The notes beneath the pieces were generated by a model, which was given only the letters and a program-made list of their open reading frames with translations, had not been told where the DNA came from and did not search any database. From a virus (Duplodnaviria; Heunggongvirae; Uroviricota; Caudoviricetes), in IMG/VR virus record IMGVR_UViG_2740892421_000003: a stretch of 5,743 nucleotides of DNA; one strand, given 5' to 3'. A program made the position numbers and the translations under genes. Below are positions 1-5,743 of this stretch, in pieces (position 1 is the stretch's first letter; each line of letters begins with the position of its first letter).

Positions 1-2
1 CG

Positions 3-3000
3 TCATCGGCCTCATCGGCGTCTGCTTCAAAAGATGAGGCGACCAGACAAGCGTCAGCAGCGAAGGGCAGCGCCACGACGGCATCCACGAAGGCAACAGA
101 GGCTGCTGGCAGTGCGACGGCGGCATCTCAGAGCAAAACTACTGCTGAATCCGCTGCGACCCGTGCGGAAGCTGCTGCTGATCGTGCTGAAGAGATTGCC
201 GGTGCAGTTGCGATGGAAGACGCAAGCCTTACAACTAAAGGTGTTGTGAAACTTAGCAGTGCTGTTGATAGCACCAGTGAATCGCTGGCCGCAACGCCAA
301 AAGCAGTTAAAGCAGCCAATGACAATGCGAATAGCAGGGTGCCATCTAACCGAAAAGTTAACGGAAAAGCACTGACTGCGGATATAACATTAACGCCGAA
401 AGATATTGGTACTTTAAATTCAGTAACGATGTCTTTCTCTGGCGGGGCTGGGTGGTTCAAACTGGCTACGGTTACCATGCCACAAGCGAGTTCCATCGTT
501 TACATCGCATTGATTGGTGGCGCTGGTTACAACGTCGGTTCCCNNNNNNNNNNCACATTAACGCCGAAAGATATTGGTACTTTAAATTCAGTAACGATGT
601 CTTTCTCTGGCGGGGCAGGGTGGTTCAAACTGGCTACGGTTACCATGCCACAAGCGAGTTCCATCGTTTACATCGCATTGATTGGTGGCGCTGGTTACAA
701 CGTCGGTTCCCCACATCAGGCAGGCATTTCAGAACTGGTTCTACGAGCAGGCAATGGAAACCCCAAAGGAATTACCGGGGCTTTGTGGAAGCGTACAGCC
801 GTCGGATTAACGAATTTCGCCTGGATCAACACATCCGGCGATACATATGATATTTACGTTGAGATTGGCAATTATGCGACGAGTGTAAATATCCATTGGG
901 ATTGTACTGCAAATGCGTCAGTTTCTGTTTATACCTCGCCAACATATTCAGCGAGTAAGCCTTCCAGCGTTACCTATGGTGTTGTTTATACGATGTATAG
1001 CTCACATCAGAAACCTACACCATCAGATATTGGAGCACTGCCAACAACCGGAGGAACAGTTTCAGGTCCGTTGTCTGTTACAGGTGGATTAACTGGTTCA
1101 TTGAATGGTAATGCAAGTACAGCCACGAAATTGCAGACGGCAAGATCTATCGGTGGAGTTGTTTTCGACGGTTCTGCAAATATTAACCTTCCAGGTGTAA
1201 ACACTACGGGTAATCAGAACACCACTGGTAATGCTGCAACTGCTACAAAACTTCAGACTGCAAGAAAAATATCCGGTGTTCCATTTGATGGTTCTACTGA
1301 TATCACTTTAACCGCCGCGCATGTGGCTGCTTTTGCCAGAAGGGCAACGGATACATATGCCGATGCGGATGGTGGCGTTCCCTGGAATGCCGAATCAGGC
1401 GCTTACAATGTCACCCGCTCTGGCGACAGCTATATTCTGGTTAACTTCTATACCGGAGTCGGAAGTTGCCGGACCCTGCAGATGAAGGCGCATTACAGAA
1501 ATGGTGGTCTGTTCTACCGTTCTTCAAGAGACGGTTATGGTTTTGAGGATGACTGGGCAGAAGTTTATACCTCGAAAAATCTTCCACCAGAAAGCTACCC
1601 AGTCGGCGCACCAATCCCGTGGCCATCAGATACCGTTCCGTCTGGCTATGCCCTGATGCAGGGGCAGACTTTTGACAAATCTGCATACCCGAAACTTGCA
1701 GTGGCTTATCCGTCAGGCGTTATTCCTGATATGCGTGGCTGGACGATTAAGGGCAAGCCCGCCAGTGGTCGTGCCGTATTGTCTCAGGAACAGGACGGCA
1801 TTAAATCGCACACCCACAGCGCCAGCGCATCCAGTACGGATTTGGGGACGAAAACCACATCATCGTTTGATTACGGCACTAAATCCACGAATAACACTGG
1901 TGCACATACCCATAGTGTTAGCGGTACGGCTGCTTCAGCCGGTGCACATACCCATTCGATGACATTTGTTTCAGGTGGTTCCAGTGGTGCTCCGGGAANN
2001 NNNNNNNNAGGTGCTTTGTGGAAGCGTACAGCTGTCGGATTAGCGAATTTCGCCTGGATCAACACATCCGGCGATACATATGATATTTACGTTGAAATTG
2101 GCAATTATGCGACGAGTGTAAATATCCATTGGGATTGTACTGCAAATGCGTCAGTTTCTATTTATACATCGCCAACATATTCAGCGAGTAAGCCTTCCAG
2201 CGTTACCTATGGTGTTGTTTATACGATGTATAGCACACATCAGAAACCGACGCCGTTAGATATTGGAGCACTGCCAACAACCGGAGGAACAGTTTCAGGT
2301 CCGTTGTCTGTTACTGGTGGTATCACCGGAACATTAAATGGTAATGCAAGTACAGCAACGAAATTGCAGACGGCAAGATCTATCGGTGGAGTTGGTTTCG
2401 ACGGTTCTGCAAATATCAACCTTCCAGGTGTAAATACTACGGGTAATCAGAACACCACTGGTAATGCCGCAACTGCTACAAAACTACAGACGGCAAGAAC
2501 TATCGGCGGCGTGAGCTTTGATGGTACTGCAAATATTAATTTGCCAGGTGTTAATACGACTGGTAATCAGAATACAACAGGTAATGCGGCTACTGCTACG
2601 AAGTTGCAGACTGCGCGTACTATTAATGGGGTGTCGTTTGACGGTTCTAAAAACATTGAGCTAACTCCAAGGTCTATAGGCACGATCAACTCAGCAACAA
2701 TATCTTTTAGTGGTGGTGCCGGATGGTTCAAGCTGGCAACTGTAACCATGCCACAGGCCAGTTCCGTGGTTTACATAAGCCTGATTGGTGGTGCAGGGTA
2801 TAACGTTGGCTCCCCGCATCAAGCAGGCATCTCTGAGCTGGTTCTGCGTGCCGGAAATGGAAATCCAAAGGGTATTACTGGTGCATTATGGCGACGGACA
2901 TCGGTTGGATTTACTAATTTTGCATGGGTGAATACATCCGGTGATACCTATGATGTTTATGTTGAAATAGGTAATTACGCCACAGGTGTTAATATTCAGT

Positions 3001-5330
3001 GGGATTATACCAGTAACGCCAGCGTAACGATTCATACATCACCAACTTATACAGCGAATAAACCAACTGGTCTTACTGATGGAACGGTATATGTCATTTA
3101 CAGTTCGCACATTAAACCGACCGCCACGGATGTCGGCGCATTACCAATAACCGGAGGAAATCTCAACGGCGGTTTAACGGCTACTGGTGAGATCATTTCA
3201 AAATCGGCGAATGGTCTGCGCATTGCCTACGGAAGCTACGGATTCTTTATCCGAAACGATGGTTCAAACACATATTTCATGTTGACCAATTCGGGTAACA
3301 GCCTGGGAACCTATAATAGTTTAAGGCCGCTTATCATTAACAATGCCAATGGTGCTGTTACGATCGCTAATGGACTCAATGTTACTGGTGGCGTAAATGG
3401 TAGCTTGAATGGCAATGCTTCAACGGCTACGAAGTTGCAAACAGCGAGAAACATCAATGGTGTTAAGTTTGATGGTTCAGGCGATATCAATATTAATACA
3501 TTGGTATCTCGTGGCCGAGTTACGGCGTTAAGCGGCTCTACTCAAGGCACTGCTGGCATTCAAATGTATGAGGCGTACAACAATAGCTACCCGACCATGT
3601 ATGGCAACGTATTGCACATGAAAGGTGCGAGTGCTTCTGGTGAGGGCGAGATGCTTGTTGGCTGGAGCGGAACGGATGGTGCTCATGCACCGGTTTATGT
3701 TCGTTCACGCCGTGATACTTCGACAGCGAATTGGTCTGGTTGGGCGCAGGTCTATACCACTGCTCATAAACCCACAGCGAAAGATGTTGGGGCTGCACAG
3801 ACGTTTAGCGCGTCATACAGTACTGGGGCTGGCAACTGGACTACCGCTGAATTTATCGCATGGCTGAAGGAGCGTGGTGCTTTCGCCGTACCGTATTGGA
3901 TGATGAAAGGCTCTTGGTCATATGCCGACAATAAAATTATCACTGATACAGGTGTCGGCAATATTTGTCTTGCTGGTGCGGTTATCGAGGTTTTAGGTCA
4001 CGAAGGCGCAATGACCATCCGAGTTACTACGCCTACAACGACAACCGGAGGTGGTATTGCCAGTGCTCAGTTCACCTATATTAATCACGGTAGCGCGTAT
4101 GCCCCTGCCTGGCGCAGAGATTACAACACTGCTCTCAAACCCACTGCGGCTGATGTCGGTGCGTTACCGATTTCTGGCGGAACAATGACTGGTGTGCTGA
4201 CGCTGCAAAATGTGAGTCAGCCCCTCAAGACGCAAGGTGGAGGCATTCTGGCAAATGATGGAAATTTATACATTAATAAGTCGGGATTTGCAGGCTGGAT
4301 TGATGCGCTATTTATGAAAAACAGCGGCGGTACGATGTCCGGACAGCTTAAGATCCGCTCTACGGATGGGTTACGCATTTACGATGCGGCATACGGGATG
4401 ATTTTTCGCCGTTCCGAAAATAATTTTTACCTTATCCCGACAGCAAAAGACCAGGGAGAAAATGGTGATATAGGTTCGCTTCGTCCATTTTATGTAGATC
4501 TCACTAATGGCAGAGTAACAATGGGCAATGGTGCTGTTGTTAACGGTGGTCTTGGGCTGGGTGTGGTCAATGGTCTTGGCGGTAATTCCATTGTTCTGGG
4601 TGACAATGACACCGGCTTTAAACAGAACGGAGATGGCATTCTGGATGTTTACGCCAATAGCGCCCATGTTTTTAGGTTCGTTAATAGCACGCTGCAAAGC
4701 CTTAAGCCGTTGAGTGTAACGGGTGACATCACGTCAAGTGCGTGGGTTTACGCCAACCGTTTTTCCATCAACAGCGGCTCTGGCGCGTGGATAGATATGC
4801 GTAACCAGAACGTCATCTTCGGGAGGAACGCTGTAAGTACAAGCTCTGCACAAGCGTTGTTGAGACAAGACCACGCGGATCGCAAATTCTTCTTGGGTGG
4901 CTTGGGAAACAGTCAGTTTGGTTTTTACATGATCAACAACTCACGTACCGCAAACGGCACTGACGCTGCCGCTTATCTCCAGAACGACGGCACTTGGGTT
5001 TGCGCAGGCAACGGTAGTTTTAATGACGTTTACATCCGTTCCGACCGCCGTAGTAAGCGCAATATTCGCAAAATTGAGCGGGCGCTCGACAAGCTGGAGC
5101 AGATCGAAGGTGTTCTCTACGAGATTCAGGTCTGTGGCCGTTATGAGCAGTCTGGCGGCCTCATCGCTCAGGACGTCCAGAATGTTCAGCCTGAACTGGT
5201 AACGGTTGACCATAACGATCAGTCAGGAGAGCCTCGTCTGCGTCTTAACTACAACGGCGTTATCGGCATGTTGGTCGAGGCTGTCAAAGAGCTGCGCGAG
5301 GAAGTGCGCGAACTGAAGGCAAAAATGTAA
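3..5330 (+). CDS. Long (side) tail fibre protein, mosaic, with C-terminal intramolecular chaperone domain; 5'-partial (continues upstream of window); spans two N-run gaps
   Basis: Frame +3 has no stop codon from nt 3 to TAA at 5328-5330 (1775 sense codons in window). Translation upstream of the track's ATG at 213 reads [70 protein letters not shown], a typical fibre shaft, so 213 is an internal Met. Contains the Stf-type motif [25 protein letters not shown], 40-aa tail-fibre repeats, a tail-collar-like block, HTHS motifs, and an S-D-x-x-x-K C-terminal domain. Family call from memory, not a search. Confidence 0.9.
237..311 (+). other. Conserved side-tail-fibre motif ([25 protein letters not shown]), as recalled from lambda Stf and relatives
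   Basis: Direct translation of frame +3. The motif and preceding Ala/Ser/Thr-rich stretch resemble the central region of lambda Stf as I recall it (..[25 protein letters not shown]..). Confidence 0.7.
387..711 (+). repeat. Tandem direct repeat: 157-nt unit (387-543) repeated at 555-711, period 168 nt, copies separated by the 10-N run
   Basis: Both copies encode [52 protein letters not shown]. By manual alignment there is one mismatch (T449 vs A617, GCT vs GCA, synonymous). Confidence 0.85.
544..553. other. Run of 10 N (assembly gap or masked bases) inside the tail fibre ORF
   Basis: Literal nnnnnnnnnn in the sequence; flanked on both sides by the same 157-nt repeat unit. Confidence 0.99.
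778..1265 (+). repeat. Long direct repeat, copy A (~488 nt; partner at 2011-2498, in-frame offset 1233 nt)
   Basis: Manual alignment gives about 28 mismatches in about 488 positions (about 94% identity; needs computational confirmation). Encodes [49 protein letters not shown]...[17 protein letters not shown]...[12 protein letters not shown]. Confidence 0.85.
1101..1320 (+). repeat. Two tandem copies of the ~40-aa phage tail-fibre repeat (120-nt period)
   Basis: [43 protein letters not shown] followed by [27 protein letters not shown]. The GGT-AAT-GCx starts at 1107 and 1227 are exactly 120 nt apart. Confidence 0.8.
1599..1998 (+). other. Tail-collar-like domain followed by three His-x-His (HTHS) motifs; a lambda-Stf-type distal receptor-binding region found here in the middle of the ORF
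   Basis: [133 protein letters not shown]. Matches my recollection of the C-terminal region of lambda Stf and of tail-collar domains (..LPDMRGW..). The block ends exactly at the second N run. Confidence 0.75.
1999..2008. other. Run of 10 N (assembly gap or masked bases) inside the tail fibre ORF
   Basis: Literal N run. Left flank is the end of the HxH block; right flank starts in the middle of the repeated module (GALWKRT...). Confidence 0.99.
2011..2498 (+). repeat. Long direct repeat, copy B (partner of 778-1265)
   Basis: Same manual alignment as copy A. Protein differs at only about 7-8 residues (for example LTNF/LANF, SVSVY/SVSIY, TPSDIG/TPLDIG, GGVVFDG/GGVGFDG). Confidence 0.85.
2334..2680 (+). 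repeat. Three tandem copies of the ~40-aa tail-fibre repeat (120-nt period; units start near 2340, 2460, 2580)
   Basis: ..[40 protein letters not shown] / [40 protein letters not shown] / [27 protein letters not shown]. Nucleotide copies are diverged, mostly at synonymous positions. Confidence 0.85.
2664..3158 (+). repeat. Third, diverged copy of the ~230-aa fibre module (TPRSIG...[18 protein letters not shown]...[10 protein letters not shown]...[16 protein letters not shown]...[17 protein letters not shown])
   Basis: Collinear at protein level with 387-1058. Nucleotide sequence is clearly more diverged than the A/B pair (roughly three quarters identical by eye, not computed). Confidence 0.75.
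3213..4580 (+). other. Distal fibre region with two related units of about 60-70 aa (3213-3400 and 4368-4580; pattern GLRI..Y..G..FR....N.YF..T.....G...SLRP......NG.VT..NG) and small domains each ending in a KPT..D.GA junction
   Basis: [54 protein letters not shown] versus [55 protein letters not shown]. Protein-level similarity only; no nucleotide repeat. Confidence 0.5.
3405..3500 (+). repeat. Sixth, isolated copy of the 40-aa tail-fibre repeat
   Basis: [31 protein letters not shown] in frame +3. Confidence 0.75.
5040..5327 (+). other. C-terminal intramolecular chaperone / autoproteolytic domain (endosialidase-chaperone, peptidase S74-like); predicted cleavage after Ser encoded at 5040-5042, Lys at 5055-5057
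   Basis: Translation ..[102 protein letters not shown]. The S-D-x-x-x-K spacing and the GLIAQDV / LNYNGVIG / terminal helix signature match the self-cleaving C-terminal domains of phage K1F endosialidase and T5 pb1 as I recall them. Confidence 0.8.
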
Positions 5331-5336
5331 TCAAGG

Positions 5337-5366
5337 TGAATGGTGAGGGGCCACCCTCACCATTCA
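5337..5366 (+). terminator. Perfect hairpin (13-bp stem, 4-nt GCCA loop) 6 nt after the fibre stop codon; possible terminator or attenuator lacking a canonical U-tract
   Basis: TGAATGGTGAGGG-GCCA-CCCTCACCATTCA; all 13 positions pair (7 G:C). Downstream sequence is GGATATTCACATC, not a T run. Confidence 0.45.
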
Positions 5367-5382
5367 GGATATTCACATCAAA

Positions 5383-5388
5383 AAGGAG
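5383..5388 (+). promoter_or_regulatory. Shine-Dalgarno sequence (AAGGAG) for the downstream gene
   Basis: AAGGAG sits 7 nt upstream of GTG at 5396 (5 nt upstream of the out-of-frame ATG at 5394). Confidence 0.6.
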
Positions 5389-5395
5389 ATTAGAT

Positions 5396-5743
5396 GTGCC
5401 AATTGTCGGTGTTCCCGGTTGGATTGGGTCTTCGGCTGTCAGTGTGACAGGCCAGAGATGGATGAGTGCGGCTCGAACGGCGGTGCAACTGCCAGCGGCT
5501 GGTTCAATGTCTCAAATGGCCGGGCGATCTAAAGAAGTTCAGTACAGCATCGGTGCGAATCATAACTACAACAAAGACACACTGATCAACTATTTAAAAT
5601 CCCAGGGGGCGACGCCAGTCGTTGTTACCATTACAGGGGATCTGGTGTCGTCCAGTAGCGGCGTGCCATGTTTAGATTTCCCGAGTTCACTTACCAACTC
5701 TTATATCAGCCTTGTAATCAACGCAGGTGTGACTGTCTATGGA
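5396..5743 (+). CDS. Hypothetical phage protein, GTG start, 3'-partial (runs off window); function unknown
   Basis: Frame +2 is open from GTG 5396 to the window end (116 codons, no stop): (M)PIVGVPGWIGSSAVSVTGQRWMSAARTAVQLPAAGSMSQMAGRSKEVQYSIGANHNYNKDTLINYLKSQGATPVVVTITGDLVSSSSGVPCLDFPSSLTNSYISLVINAGVTVYG. The overlapping ATG at 5394 is in another frame and stops after 17 codons. Missing from the ORF track because it has no ATG start and no stop in window. Confidence 0.6.
   Translation, partial: MPIVGVPGWIGSSAVSVTGQRWMSAARTAVQLPAAGSMSQMAGRSKEVQYSIGANHNYNKDTLINYLKSQGATPVVVTITGDLVSSSSGVPCLDFPSSLTNSYISLVINAGVTVYG

Follow-up and report, generated by a model that had tools for sequence, protein, structure and literature searches.

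In tail fibres of the lambda Stf or T4 gp37 type, which are accompanied by Tfa, a collar domain is followed by an HxH needle. A close chromosomal representative is the lambdoid stf of E. coli STEC409 (WP_161620475.1), which lies in the gene order J - lom - stf - tfa. In gp37 fibres of the S16/T2 type, a separate gp38 adhesin docks at a site that becomes exposed once the chaperone is removed, and the cleavage sites are DLNVS^SDRRIKK in S16 and DVYIR^SDGRLKI in fPS (PMC7917993). Other phage groups have natural fibres in which a Gp12-like binding domain comes first and a T5-like one, which carries a C-terminal chaperone, comes second, namely the 'T-shaped' dual-receptor-binding fibres of Tequintavirus, Gordonclarkvirinae and Wifcevirus, described in virulent coliphages (PMC11990801). 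Here, we compared these systems with a window of 5,743 nt (the whole stretch of DNA analysed), in which a preliminary description had seen one real dual-architecture fibre or, alternatively, a fusion of two fibre genes at runs of N. The comparison points with high confidence to the second possibility: this 5.7-kb window is very probably a short-read scaffold that misjoins two related tail-fibre genes of one E. coli isolate.

An ORF scan of the window confirmed that frame 3 is open as had been described, with zero stop codons from 3 to 5330, which gives 1775 codons plus the stop. The two N runs, which had been placed only within the approximate spans 380-720 and 1900-2100, are each exactly 10 N long and lie at 544-553 and 1999-2008, splitting the window into contigs A (1-543), B (554-1998) and C (2009-5743). 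The continuity of the frame from 3 to 5330 exists only across these two runs, which argues against a real single gene. In addition, repeated sequence flanks both runs: 387-543 is the same as 555-711 apart from one mismatch, and 2010-2309 matches 777-1076 at 96% identity. Only because both offsets are, by chance, multiples of three does the frame stay open across the joins. That both joins should be in frame by chance is a coincidence of about 1 in 9, and this counts against a misjoin.

Contig A (plus strand) has an Ala/Ser-rich shaft with a Phage_fiber_2 repeat at 225-347 (Pfam PF03406), in keeping with the Stf-like shaft of the preliminary description, and corresponds to part of the interior of an stf gene in a chromosomal lambdoid prophage. 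Its 543 nt agree throughout (100% identity) with 4615-5157 of the STEC409 reference L004, inside stf, compared to 11 mismatches with the phage-plasmid reference L010, and has the chromosomal bases at the diagnostic positions in the allele table. Contig B is 99.93% identical to the same chromosomal stf gene. Its larger part (776-1998, plus strand) consists of a chromosomal stf shaft module, a gp37_C-like region (PF12604, 1365-1574), the tail collar (PF07484, 1605-1748) and the start of the HxH needle (PF03335 repeat, 1890-1931), with HTH motifs at 1809, 1905 and 1947. These Pfam matches bear out the internal collar and His-x-His block that had been noticed (1605-1955), and contig B also matches the T4 gp37 tip (PDB 2XGF, E 3e-60), while an NCBIfam search of contig B, contig C and the gp38 fragment (see below) gave zero matches. 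Positions 776-1998 have 0 mismatches to L004, and 776-1266 have 27 to the plasmid. At least 80% of contig B is covered in 314 complete genomes, and among the matches listed 25 of 25 are chromosomes.

Contig B breaks off partway through the HxH needle, whereas the 99.9%-identical L004 gene has a further 79 codons before its true stop, which speaks against a real ORF. In L004, stf runs on to 6683 and is followed by tfa (6683-7264), and in the window the complete needle with its stop and a tfa gene directly downstream are both absent. Relative to WP_161620475.1, to which 1-543 is 100% and 555-1998 is 99.9% identical, the window holds only residues 387-997 of 1075 and lacks tfa as well as the final 79 codons; at N run 1 it has an artificial second copy of 56 codons, and contig B begins with the plasmid gene's alleles at two bases. 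Taken together, these results indicate that the collar/HxH part of the window (contigs A and B) is a piece of a chromosomal lambdoid prophage stf gene.

N run 1 (544-553) is a false gap. Placed on L004, the two contigs A and B share 157 nt (387-543 with 555-711), and thus the scaffold carries the 56 codons twice, with a frame-preserving offset of 168 nt. The two overlap copies differ at one position, T at 449 versus A at 617. We rejected a true 168-nt tandem duplication, since the repeat is single-copy in all references examined and the two copies carry alleles of two different genes. At the two diagnostic positions, the start of contig B (554-775, plus strand) reads as the phage-plasmid does (C at 554 and A at 617), and it shows 0 mismatches to the plasmid L010, whereas the chromosome L004 differs at both. 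From 776 on, contig B has chromosomal bases, so that the switch falls across 618-775, which exact-run analysis identified as a 158-nt stretch identical in the chromosomal and plasmid genes. This stretch belongs to about 1.1 kb of proximal shaft that the two genes have in common at 96.5% identity. Contig C starts exactly at the first distinguishing position after the 158-nt repeat, with the plasmid base. In merged A+B coordinates, contig B starts at distinguishing position 386 and contig C at 608, with the exact repeat between 449 and 608. Contig boundaries at the very positions that distinguish the two genes speak against a single real gene.

The fibre part of contig C (2009-5330, plus strand; stop codon 5328-5330) comprises the last 1106 codons of a long tail fibre of SSU5-like phage-plasmids. 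Positions 2009-5743 align in one block with 7758-11493 of L010 at 99.1% identity, and 1101 of the 1106 residues (99.5%) are identical to residues 587-1692 of its 1692-aa fibre P0001, which is encoded without N and has no Collar. The closest likeness is with such fibres of the SSU5-like (pHCM2-type, IncFIB) group, e.g. P0001 and WP_419773060.1 of pNT1F34-108k, with the same downstream gene and plasmid backbone context; the difference is that the first 586 codons are absent from the window. The intact fibres of complete plasmids likewise have S74 and lack Collar. The shaft of contig C is made of repeated Gp34_trimer-like modules (e.g. 3105-3338, PF21446) and a Mu-S-like distal segment, and PDB matches are 5YVQ and 6F45_A. 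These identities indicate that the chaperone part of the window (contig C) is a piece of a fibre gene carried by an SSU5-like phage-plasmid. In L010, the point that matches 2009 is directly preceded by sequence resembling contig A and then 554-775 of contig B. For this isolate, the plasmid sequence upstream of 2009 lies outside the window, which counts against a misjoin. Middle shaft modules vary among SSU5-like plasmids, which is natural mosaicism, and the fibre genes at this locus are highly mosaic; unusual recombinants are therefore possible in principle, and this also counts against a misjoin.

A self-cleaving chaperone domain about 1100 codons after the collar block had been proposed, and an intramolecular chaperone (Peptidase_S74) of 96 residues does lie at the extreme C-terminus (5040-5327, plus strand), where the protein ends; PF13884 matches at 5040-5204 above its gathering score (E 2.7e-11). 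Other fibres with such a C-terminal chaperone are endoNF, T5 pb1 and S16 gp37. The region aligns to the chaperone of S16 gp37, including 'SSDRRIKKDI', and the conserved Ser...Lys cleavage motif (S-D-x-x-x-K) at the start of the domain (SDRRSK, 5040-5057) aligns to SDRRIK of S16. Self-cleavage is predicted at DVYIR^SDRRSKR, with the Ser codon at 5040-5042. Schulz et al. (2010) reportedly assigned a Ser-Lys dyad a role in the self-cleavage of such chaperones.

Next to the fibre gene lies a gp38-type adhesin gene ('receptor-recognizing protein'; 5396-5743, plus strand), of which the first 116 codons are present before it runs off the end of the window; homologues have 260 aa, and a gp38 of the S16/T2 type would be expected to have a receptor-binding domain rich in polyglycine. 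It has a GTG start preceded by an AAGGAG ribosome-binding site at 5383-5388, and the same start is annotated by PGAP in L001, L002, L006 and L007. Both Gp38_N (PF21721, E 1.5e-15) and GP38 (PF05268, E 1.8e-26) were found by Pfam, and the ORF aligns with S16 gp38's N-terminal attachment domain (PDB 6F45_D, E 3e-20), and its Trp9 and Trp22 fall on the two S16 tryptophans. The second ending had been assigned to the chaperone-independent K1F/T5-pb1 type; this assignment to a self-sufficient receptor-binding tip does not hold, and the sequence shows instead that the real plasmid fibre is a gp37 of the S16/T2 type with its gp38 adhesin gene downstream. The likeness to the distal fibre of Salmonella phage S16 and T2 (PDB 6F45) lies in the chaperone and its cleavage motif, DVYIR^SDRRSKR versus DLNVS^SDRRIKK. 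However, the module is here on a temperate phage-plasmid and not on a T-even myovirus, the plasmid fibre combines a lambdoid Stf-like proximal half with a Mu-S-like distal shaft, and cleavage and docking are predicted.

N run 2 (1999-2008) is a misjoin of two different genes from two different replicons. In all seven references that contain it (L001, L002, L004, L006, L007, L009 and L010), the first base of contig C (2009) falls on B position 776, with the end of contig B lying 1223 nt further downstream. The contig order is non-collinear because of this correspondence, and on every reference examined the A+B and C parts fail to follow one another; in a real single gene the sequence would have to restart 1223 nt 'earlier' in the shared module. 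In addition, the best-matching reference changes exactly at the N runs, and every junction between parts is an N run. The join is refuted here by comparison with other genomes, as opposed to reads of the isolate itself.

On this reading, the two genes involved are as follows. Gene 1, the stf gene of a chromosomal lambdoid prophage, is the source of contig A and most of contig B and encodes a fibre with a T4-gp37-like collar and HxH needle tip, served by a separate Tfa chaperone gene. Gene 2, the SSU5-like phage-plasmid long-tail-fibre gene, is the source of contig C; its C-terminal chaperone is predicted to help the trimer fold and then to cut itself off at DVYIR^SDRRSK, which would expose the tip as the docking site of the gp38-type adhesin encoded just downstream. 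Whereas the chain of identities was observed directly, we infer that the assembler was unable to phase the two copies over the 158-nt identical stretch. The resulting contigs would then break at distinguishing positions, with contig B switching copy, and a scaffolder would have set the contigs end to end with 10-N spacers. With both joins in frame by chance, a fictitious 1775-codon ORF would result.

Searches for a natural fibre in this order agree with a scaffold misjoin. Searches of 5,426 complete genomes of E. coli and of 50,697 phage records turned up no place covering at least 80% of the window. A query spanning the junction (1450-2560) gave 297 places with at least 80% coverage in the complete E. 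coli genomes. These were rejected as examples of a natural collar-then-module order: the halves map reversed inside ordinary stf genes, and the 297 places are artefacts because of how pieces get joined into 'places'. Against plasmids, the same query gave no match of at least 80%, and the best match, pTB212, is also non-collinear. The preliminary description had asked whether homologues carry both endings in one polypeptide, and the best 120 protein homologues all have S74 without Collar (120/120), the best of them covering only the C part, 62% of the query. Hence no complete genome, phage, plasmid or protein among the matches listed has the collar-then-chaperone order, which speaks against a real ORF. 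Phage JL22 (about 100 kb) seemed at one point to connect C-type modules to the collar region, but it proved to be P1-like and to carry an ordinary stf-tfa pair. In strains CP53 and EP91B, both genes are present as separate chromosomal and plasmid loci.

It is improbable, though not negligibly so, that the two genes are separate and truly adjacent on one replicon, as in a phage-plasmid with two fibre cassettes or a plasmid-prophage cointegrate. In that case N run 2 would be a placeholder of fixed size that conceals several kilobases, made up of the rest of stf, tfa and 1.76 kb at the 5' end of the second gene. Such an arrangement gains some plausibility from the fact that a 10-N run can stand for an unknown length, that SSU5-like plasmids can have the one cassette or the other at this locus (collar plus Tfa in pTB212), and that the shared 1.1-kb segment is a plausible site of homologous recombination. 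However, the complete plasmids examined all carry a single fibre gene there, and contigs A and B match chromosomal genes at 99.9-100% compared to only 94-97% for collar-type plasmid fibres. The allele switching in contig B and the false overlap at gap 1 also point to a tangled assembly graph and away from true adjacency. The weakest reading takes the ORF as real. A single polypeptide would then have dual receptor binding, through an internal collar-HxH region of the gp37/Stf type and through a distal tip processed by a chaperone; despite a frame that is open over both N runs and the existence of T-shaped fibres, this reading is scarcely credible, since T-shaped fibres have adjacent binding domains and here the regions are about 1100 residues (codons) apart and combined only across an assembly gap, so that the likeness, a gp12/gp37-like collar region plus a chaperone-bearing tip, is superficial and one of architecture. 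The headline of the preliminary description is likewise unsupported, the parts being non-collinear and no contiguous homologue having been found, and its alternative, a fusion at the N runs, stands. The chance is tiny that this isolate encodes, in one polypeptide, a gp37/Stf-type collar-HxH receptor-binding region inside the shaft of a phage-plasmid fibre with a self-cleaving chaperone and a docking tip for gp38 at its end; if true, the temperate phage-plasmid would have a fibre of dual or triple specificity.

With a scaffold misjoin as the preferred reading, the 'giant' 1,775-codon tail-fibre gene appears as a scaffolding artefact and not a real feature, and the two genes behind it are both of known kinds and ordinary among them. 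Where prophages and phage-plasmids reside together, their tail-fibre genes have long near-identical shaft segments in common, and short-read scaffolds can therefore fuse such genes in frame into fictitious 'giant mosaic' receptor-binding proteins. These fused ORFs could contaminate protein databases and host-range predictions, and the main value of the present case is caution. The phage-plasmid and the chromosomal lambdoid prophage share the 1.1-kb fibre shaft and have different distal ends, a pattern already known from the recombinational exchange of host-range modules.

A perfect 13-bp hairpin (5337-5366, plus strand) separates the stop codon of the fibre gene from the ribosome-binding site of the gp38-type gene. 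It was rejected as a terminator, as it has no T tract and was not called by the terminator scan. The fold of 5328-5400 has -29.6 kcal/mol (z -5.3), and 0 of 200 shuffles were as stable.

Frame 3 of the + strand is an open run of 1775 codons between position 3 and its TAA stop (5328-5330), and Pfam finds along it a Phage_fiber_2 repeat (225-347), a gp37_C-like stretch (1365-1574), a tail Collar domain (1605-1748), an HxH 'Phage_fiber' repeat (1890-1931) and a Peptidase_S74 intramolecular chaperone domain (5040-5204), with HTH motifs at 1809, 1905 and 1947 on the same strand. The collar/HxH stretch is a very close match of the T4 gp37 tip structure (PDB 2XGF, E 3e-60), and the Peptidase_S74 domain lies ~1100 codons beyond this block. 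The long open frame and the two fibre endings of the preliminary description are thus both present. Continuity of the frame depends on two stretches of exactly ten N (544-553 and 1999-2008). They cut the window into contig A (1-543), contig B (554-1998) and contig C (2009-5743). In the repeat analysis, 387-543 recurred at 555-711 with a single mismatch, and 2010-2309 matched 777-1076 at 96% identity. Therefore, both N runs are flanked by sequence present elsewhere in the scaffold, which is the signature of overlapping or competing contig ends and not of a simple unsequenced hole.

Over its full length, contig B matched tail-fibre genes of chromosomal prophages in complete E. coli genomes at up to 99.9% identity; at least 80% of it was covered in 314 genomes, and among the 25 matches listed all were chromosomes. 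In E. coli STEC409, the matching prophage locus (L004) has the gene order gpJ - lom - stf (3456-6683, 1075 aa) - tfa (6683-7264) and is a classical lambdoid side-tail-fibre locus. Since contig A is 100% identical to 4615-5157 of this locus and contig B differs from 5001-6444 by one base, A and B are overlapping pieces of one gene stretch (residues 387-997 of 1075). Judged by this comparison, the first N run is a false gap with 157 nt duplicated. The offset at this run (157 nt, 10 N and one extra base) amounts to 168 nt, which is a whole 56 codons and by chance preserves the frame across it. Beyond the end of contig B, the STEC409 stf gene has another 239 nt (79 codons) of HxH repeats, ends in '...NIAFNYIVRLA*' and is followed by tfa. 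The stop codon and tfa-like gene that the preliminary description had named as evidence against a single uninterrupted fibre are therefore seen through comparison with this 99.9%-identical gene. The prophage Stf fragment is a trimeric fibre tipped by a T4-gp37-like collar and an HxH needle. As known for lambda Stf and T4 gp37, such a fibre requires a separate Tfa chaperone, whose gene sits downstream of stf in the STEC409 reference.

Contig C matched ~105-120 kb SSU5/pHCM2-like phage-plasmids, and CMS-2020a and SSU5 were among the phages that it matched. When the whole chimeric translation was searched, the top match was a 1692-aa 'tail fiber domain-containing protein' (P0001), which spanned only 62% of the query, exactly the contig C part, and 0 of the 120 homologues listed combined Collar with Peptidase_S74. 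P0001 is encoded on a 38-kb N-free phage-plasmid contig (L010) in the order TipJ-like tail-tip gene, fibre, gp38-like gene and usual plasmid backbone genes. Window 2009-5743 aligned with L010 7758-11493 at 99.1% in one single block, and the contig C fibre protein is identical to P0001 residues 587-1692 at 1101 of 1106 positions. Directly upstream of the 2009-equivalent, L010 carries counterparts of window 1-543 (98.0%) and 554-775 (100%), and the collar/HxH sequence is absent there. Intact fibres of complete plasmids, such as pNT1F34-108k (1539 aa) and the reference locus L007 (1168 aa), have S74 and Gp34_trimer-like modules without Collar. In every reference holding it (chromosomal L004; plasmid L001, L002, L006, L007, L009 and L010), the sequence from 2009/2010 maps to the position of contig B 776/777, 1223 nt before the end of B, and in plasmid pTB212 (L008) the collar is downstream of this module, not upstream. 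A query spanning the junction (1450-2560) appeared to be at least 80% covered in 297 genomes, and these were rejected as natural junctions since the two halves lie in reversed order inside ordinary stf genes; no plasmid covered at least 80% of this query, and no complete genome or phage record covered at least 80% of the whole window.

Between the chromosomal and plasmid reference genes, 38 of 1098 aligned positions are different (96.5% identity), and the two are identical for at most 158 nt in a row (450-607 in merged A+B coordinates). Where the two genes can be told apart, contig A carries the chromosomal base (A at 386 and T at 449, merged coordinates). Contig B starts exactly at merged position 386 with the plasmid base (C, window 554), has the plasmid base at 449 (A, window 617) and, past the identical stretch, has only chromosomal bases from 608 (window 776); contig C, which starts exactly at 608 (window 2009), has the plasmid base there and is plasmid-type thereafter. 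These bases place the contig ends on shared-sequence borders and show that B switches copy across the 158 nt, which cannot be phased by short reads. We infer that the assembler failed to separate two related genes and that the scaffolder would then have lined the pieces up with minimal 10-N spacers. In the complete genomes of CP53 and EP91B both genes occur in the same strain, as separate chromosomal and plasmid loci. We give only a slim chance to the two genes truly lying side by side on one replicon, with the gap concealing kilobases of sequence. The 'T-shaped' fibres of BASEL phages are real single polypeptides with two receptor-binding domains, joining a Gp12-like domain to a T5-like domain bearing a chaperone (PMC11990801), so the claimed architecture is not without precedent. 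That the giant ORF itself is real, as frame 3 being open across both N runs might suggest, is hardly credible, since the dual-ended architecture exists here, in contrast to those fibres, only across an assembly gap. In our judgement the giant ORF is no real feature, a verdict drawn from comparative evidence in which several independent lines agree, and both underlying genes are ordinary members of known families. The shared segment of 1098 nt (window 1-1266, L004 4615-5712, L010 7151-8248) includes exact blocks of 158, 124 and 116 nt; distal host-range modules of prophage stf and phage-plasmid fibre genes could readily be swapped through it by homologous exchange.

The distal end of the phage-plasmid fibre, earlier labelled as the chaperone-independent K1F/T5-pb1 type, is S16/T2-like with a downstream gp38. 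The last 96 residues (5040-5327, + strand) are an S74 intramolecular chaperone, and this region aligns to the solved S16 gp37 structure (PDB 6F45_A). The predicted self-cleavage site, DVYIR^SDRRSKR, matches those reported for S16 gp37 (DLNVS^SDRRIKK) and fPS phages (DVYIR^SDGRLKI) (PMC7917993). A gp38-type adhesin gene (+ strand; Pfam Gp38_N and GP38; PDB 6F45_D, E 3e-20) starts at GTG 5396 after an AAGGAG site (5383-5388), leaves the window at 5743 after 116 codons, and keeps both tryptophans seen in S16 gp38's N-terminal attachment domain. By analogy with S16, it is likely that the chaperone would aid trimer folding and then cut itself off, and that the uncovered tip would bind gp38, so that the receptor would be recognised by gp38 and not by the fibre itself. 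A T-even/S16-type tip (putatively self-cleaving chaperone fibre plus gp38 gene) is carried by an SSU5-like phage-plasmid on a fibre whose proximal half is lambdoid Stf-like. The fibre stop codon and the gp38 ribosome-binding site are separated by a perfect 13-bp GC-rich hairpin (5337-5366; fold of 5328-5400, -29.6 kcal/mol, z -5.3); it has no T tract and is therefore not a canonical intrinsic terminator, and a role in setting the fibre-to-adhesin ratio, as stabiliser or attenuator, is possible.

Just before the chaperone cleavage site, 4749-5069 strongly resembles residues 340-445 of the phage Mu tail fibre protein S (PDB 5YVQ, E 2.8e-35) and is another mosaic piece of the plasmid fibre. The internal repeats of contig C (2340-2650, 2658-3180 and 3411-3478) are genuine, being within one contig and confirmed by the independent contig L010; they include three tandem 120-nt (40-aa) units and a second, diverged (66-71%) copy of a 'TLTPKDIG...GALWKRT...' module. 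SSU5-like plasmids exchange cassettes at their fibre locus. In two complete plasmids (L001 3235-7098 and L002 3127-7497), the annotation splits the fibre gene into a pseudogene fragment and a shorter CDS, which could reflect either frameshift errors of long-read sequencing or a fibre gene in real decay. Plasmid pGMI17-003_2 (L009 5606-9465) has a third kind of ending, with two small hypothetical genes after it. In pTB212 (L008 4240-8881), a collar/HxH fibre, a macro-domain protein and Tfa replace the S74 fibre and gp38; to find a macro-domain gene separating fibre and tfa is unusual.
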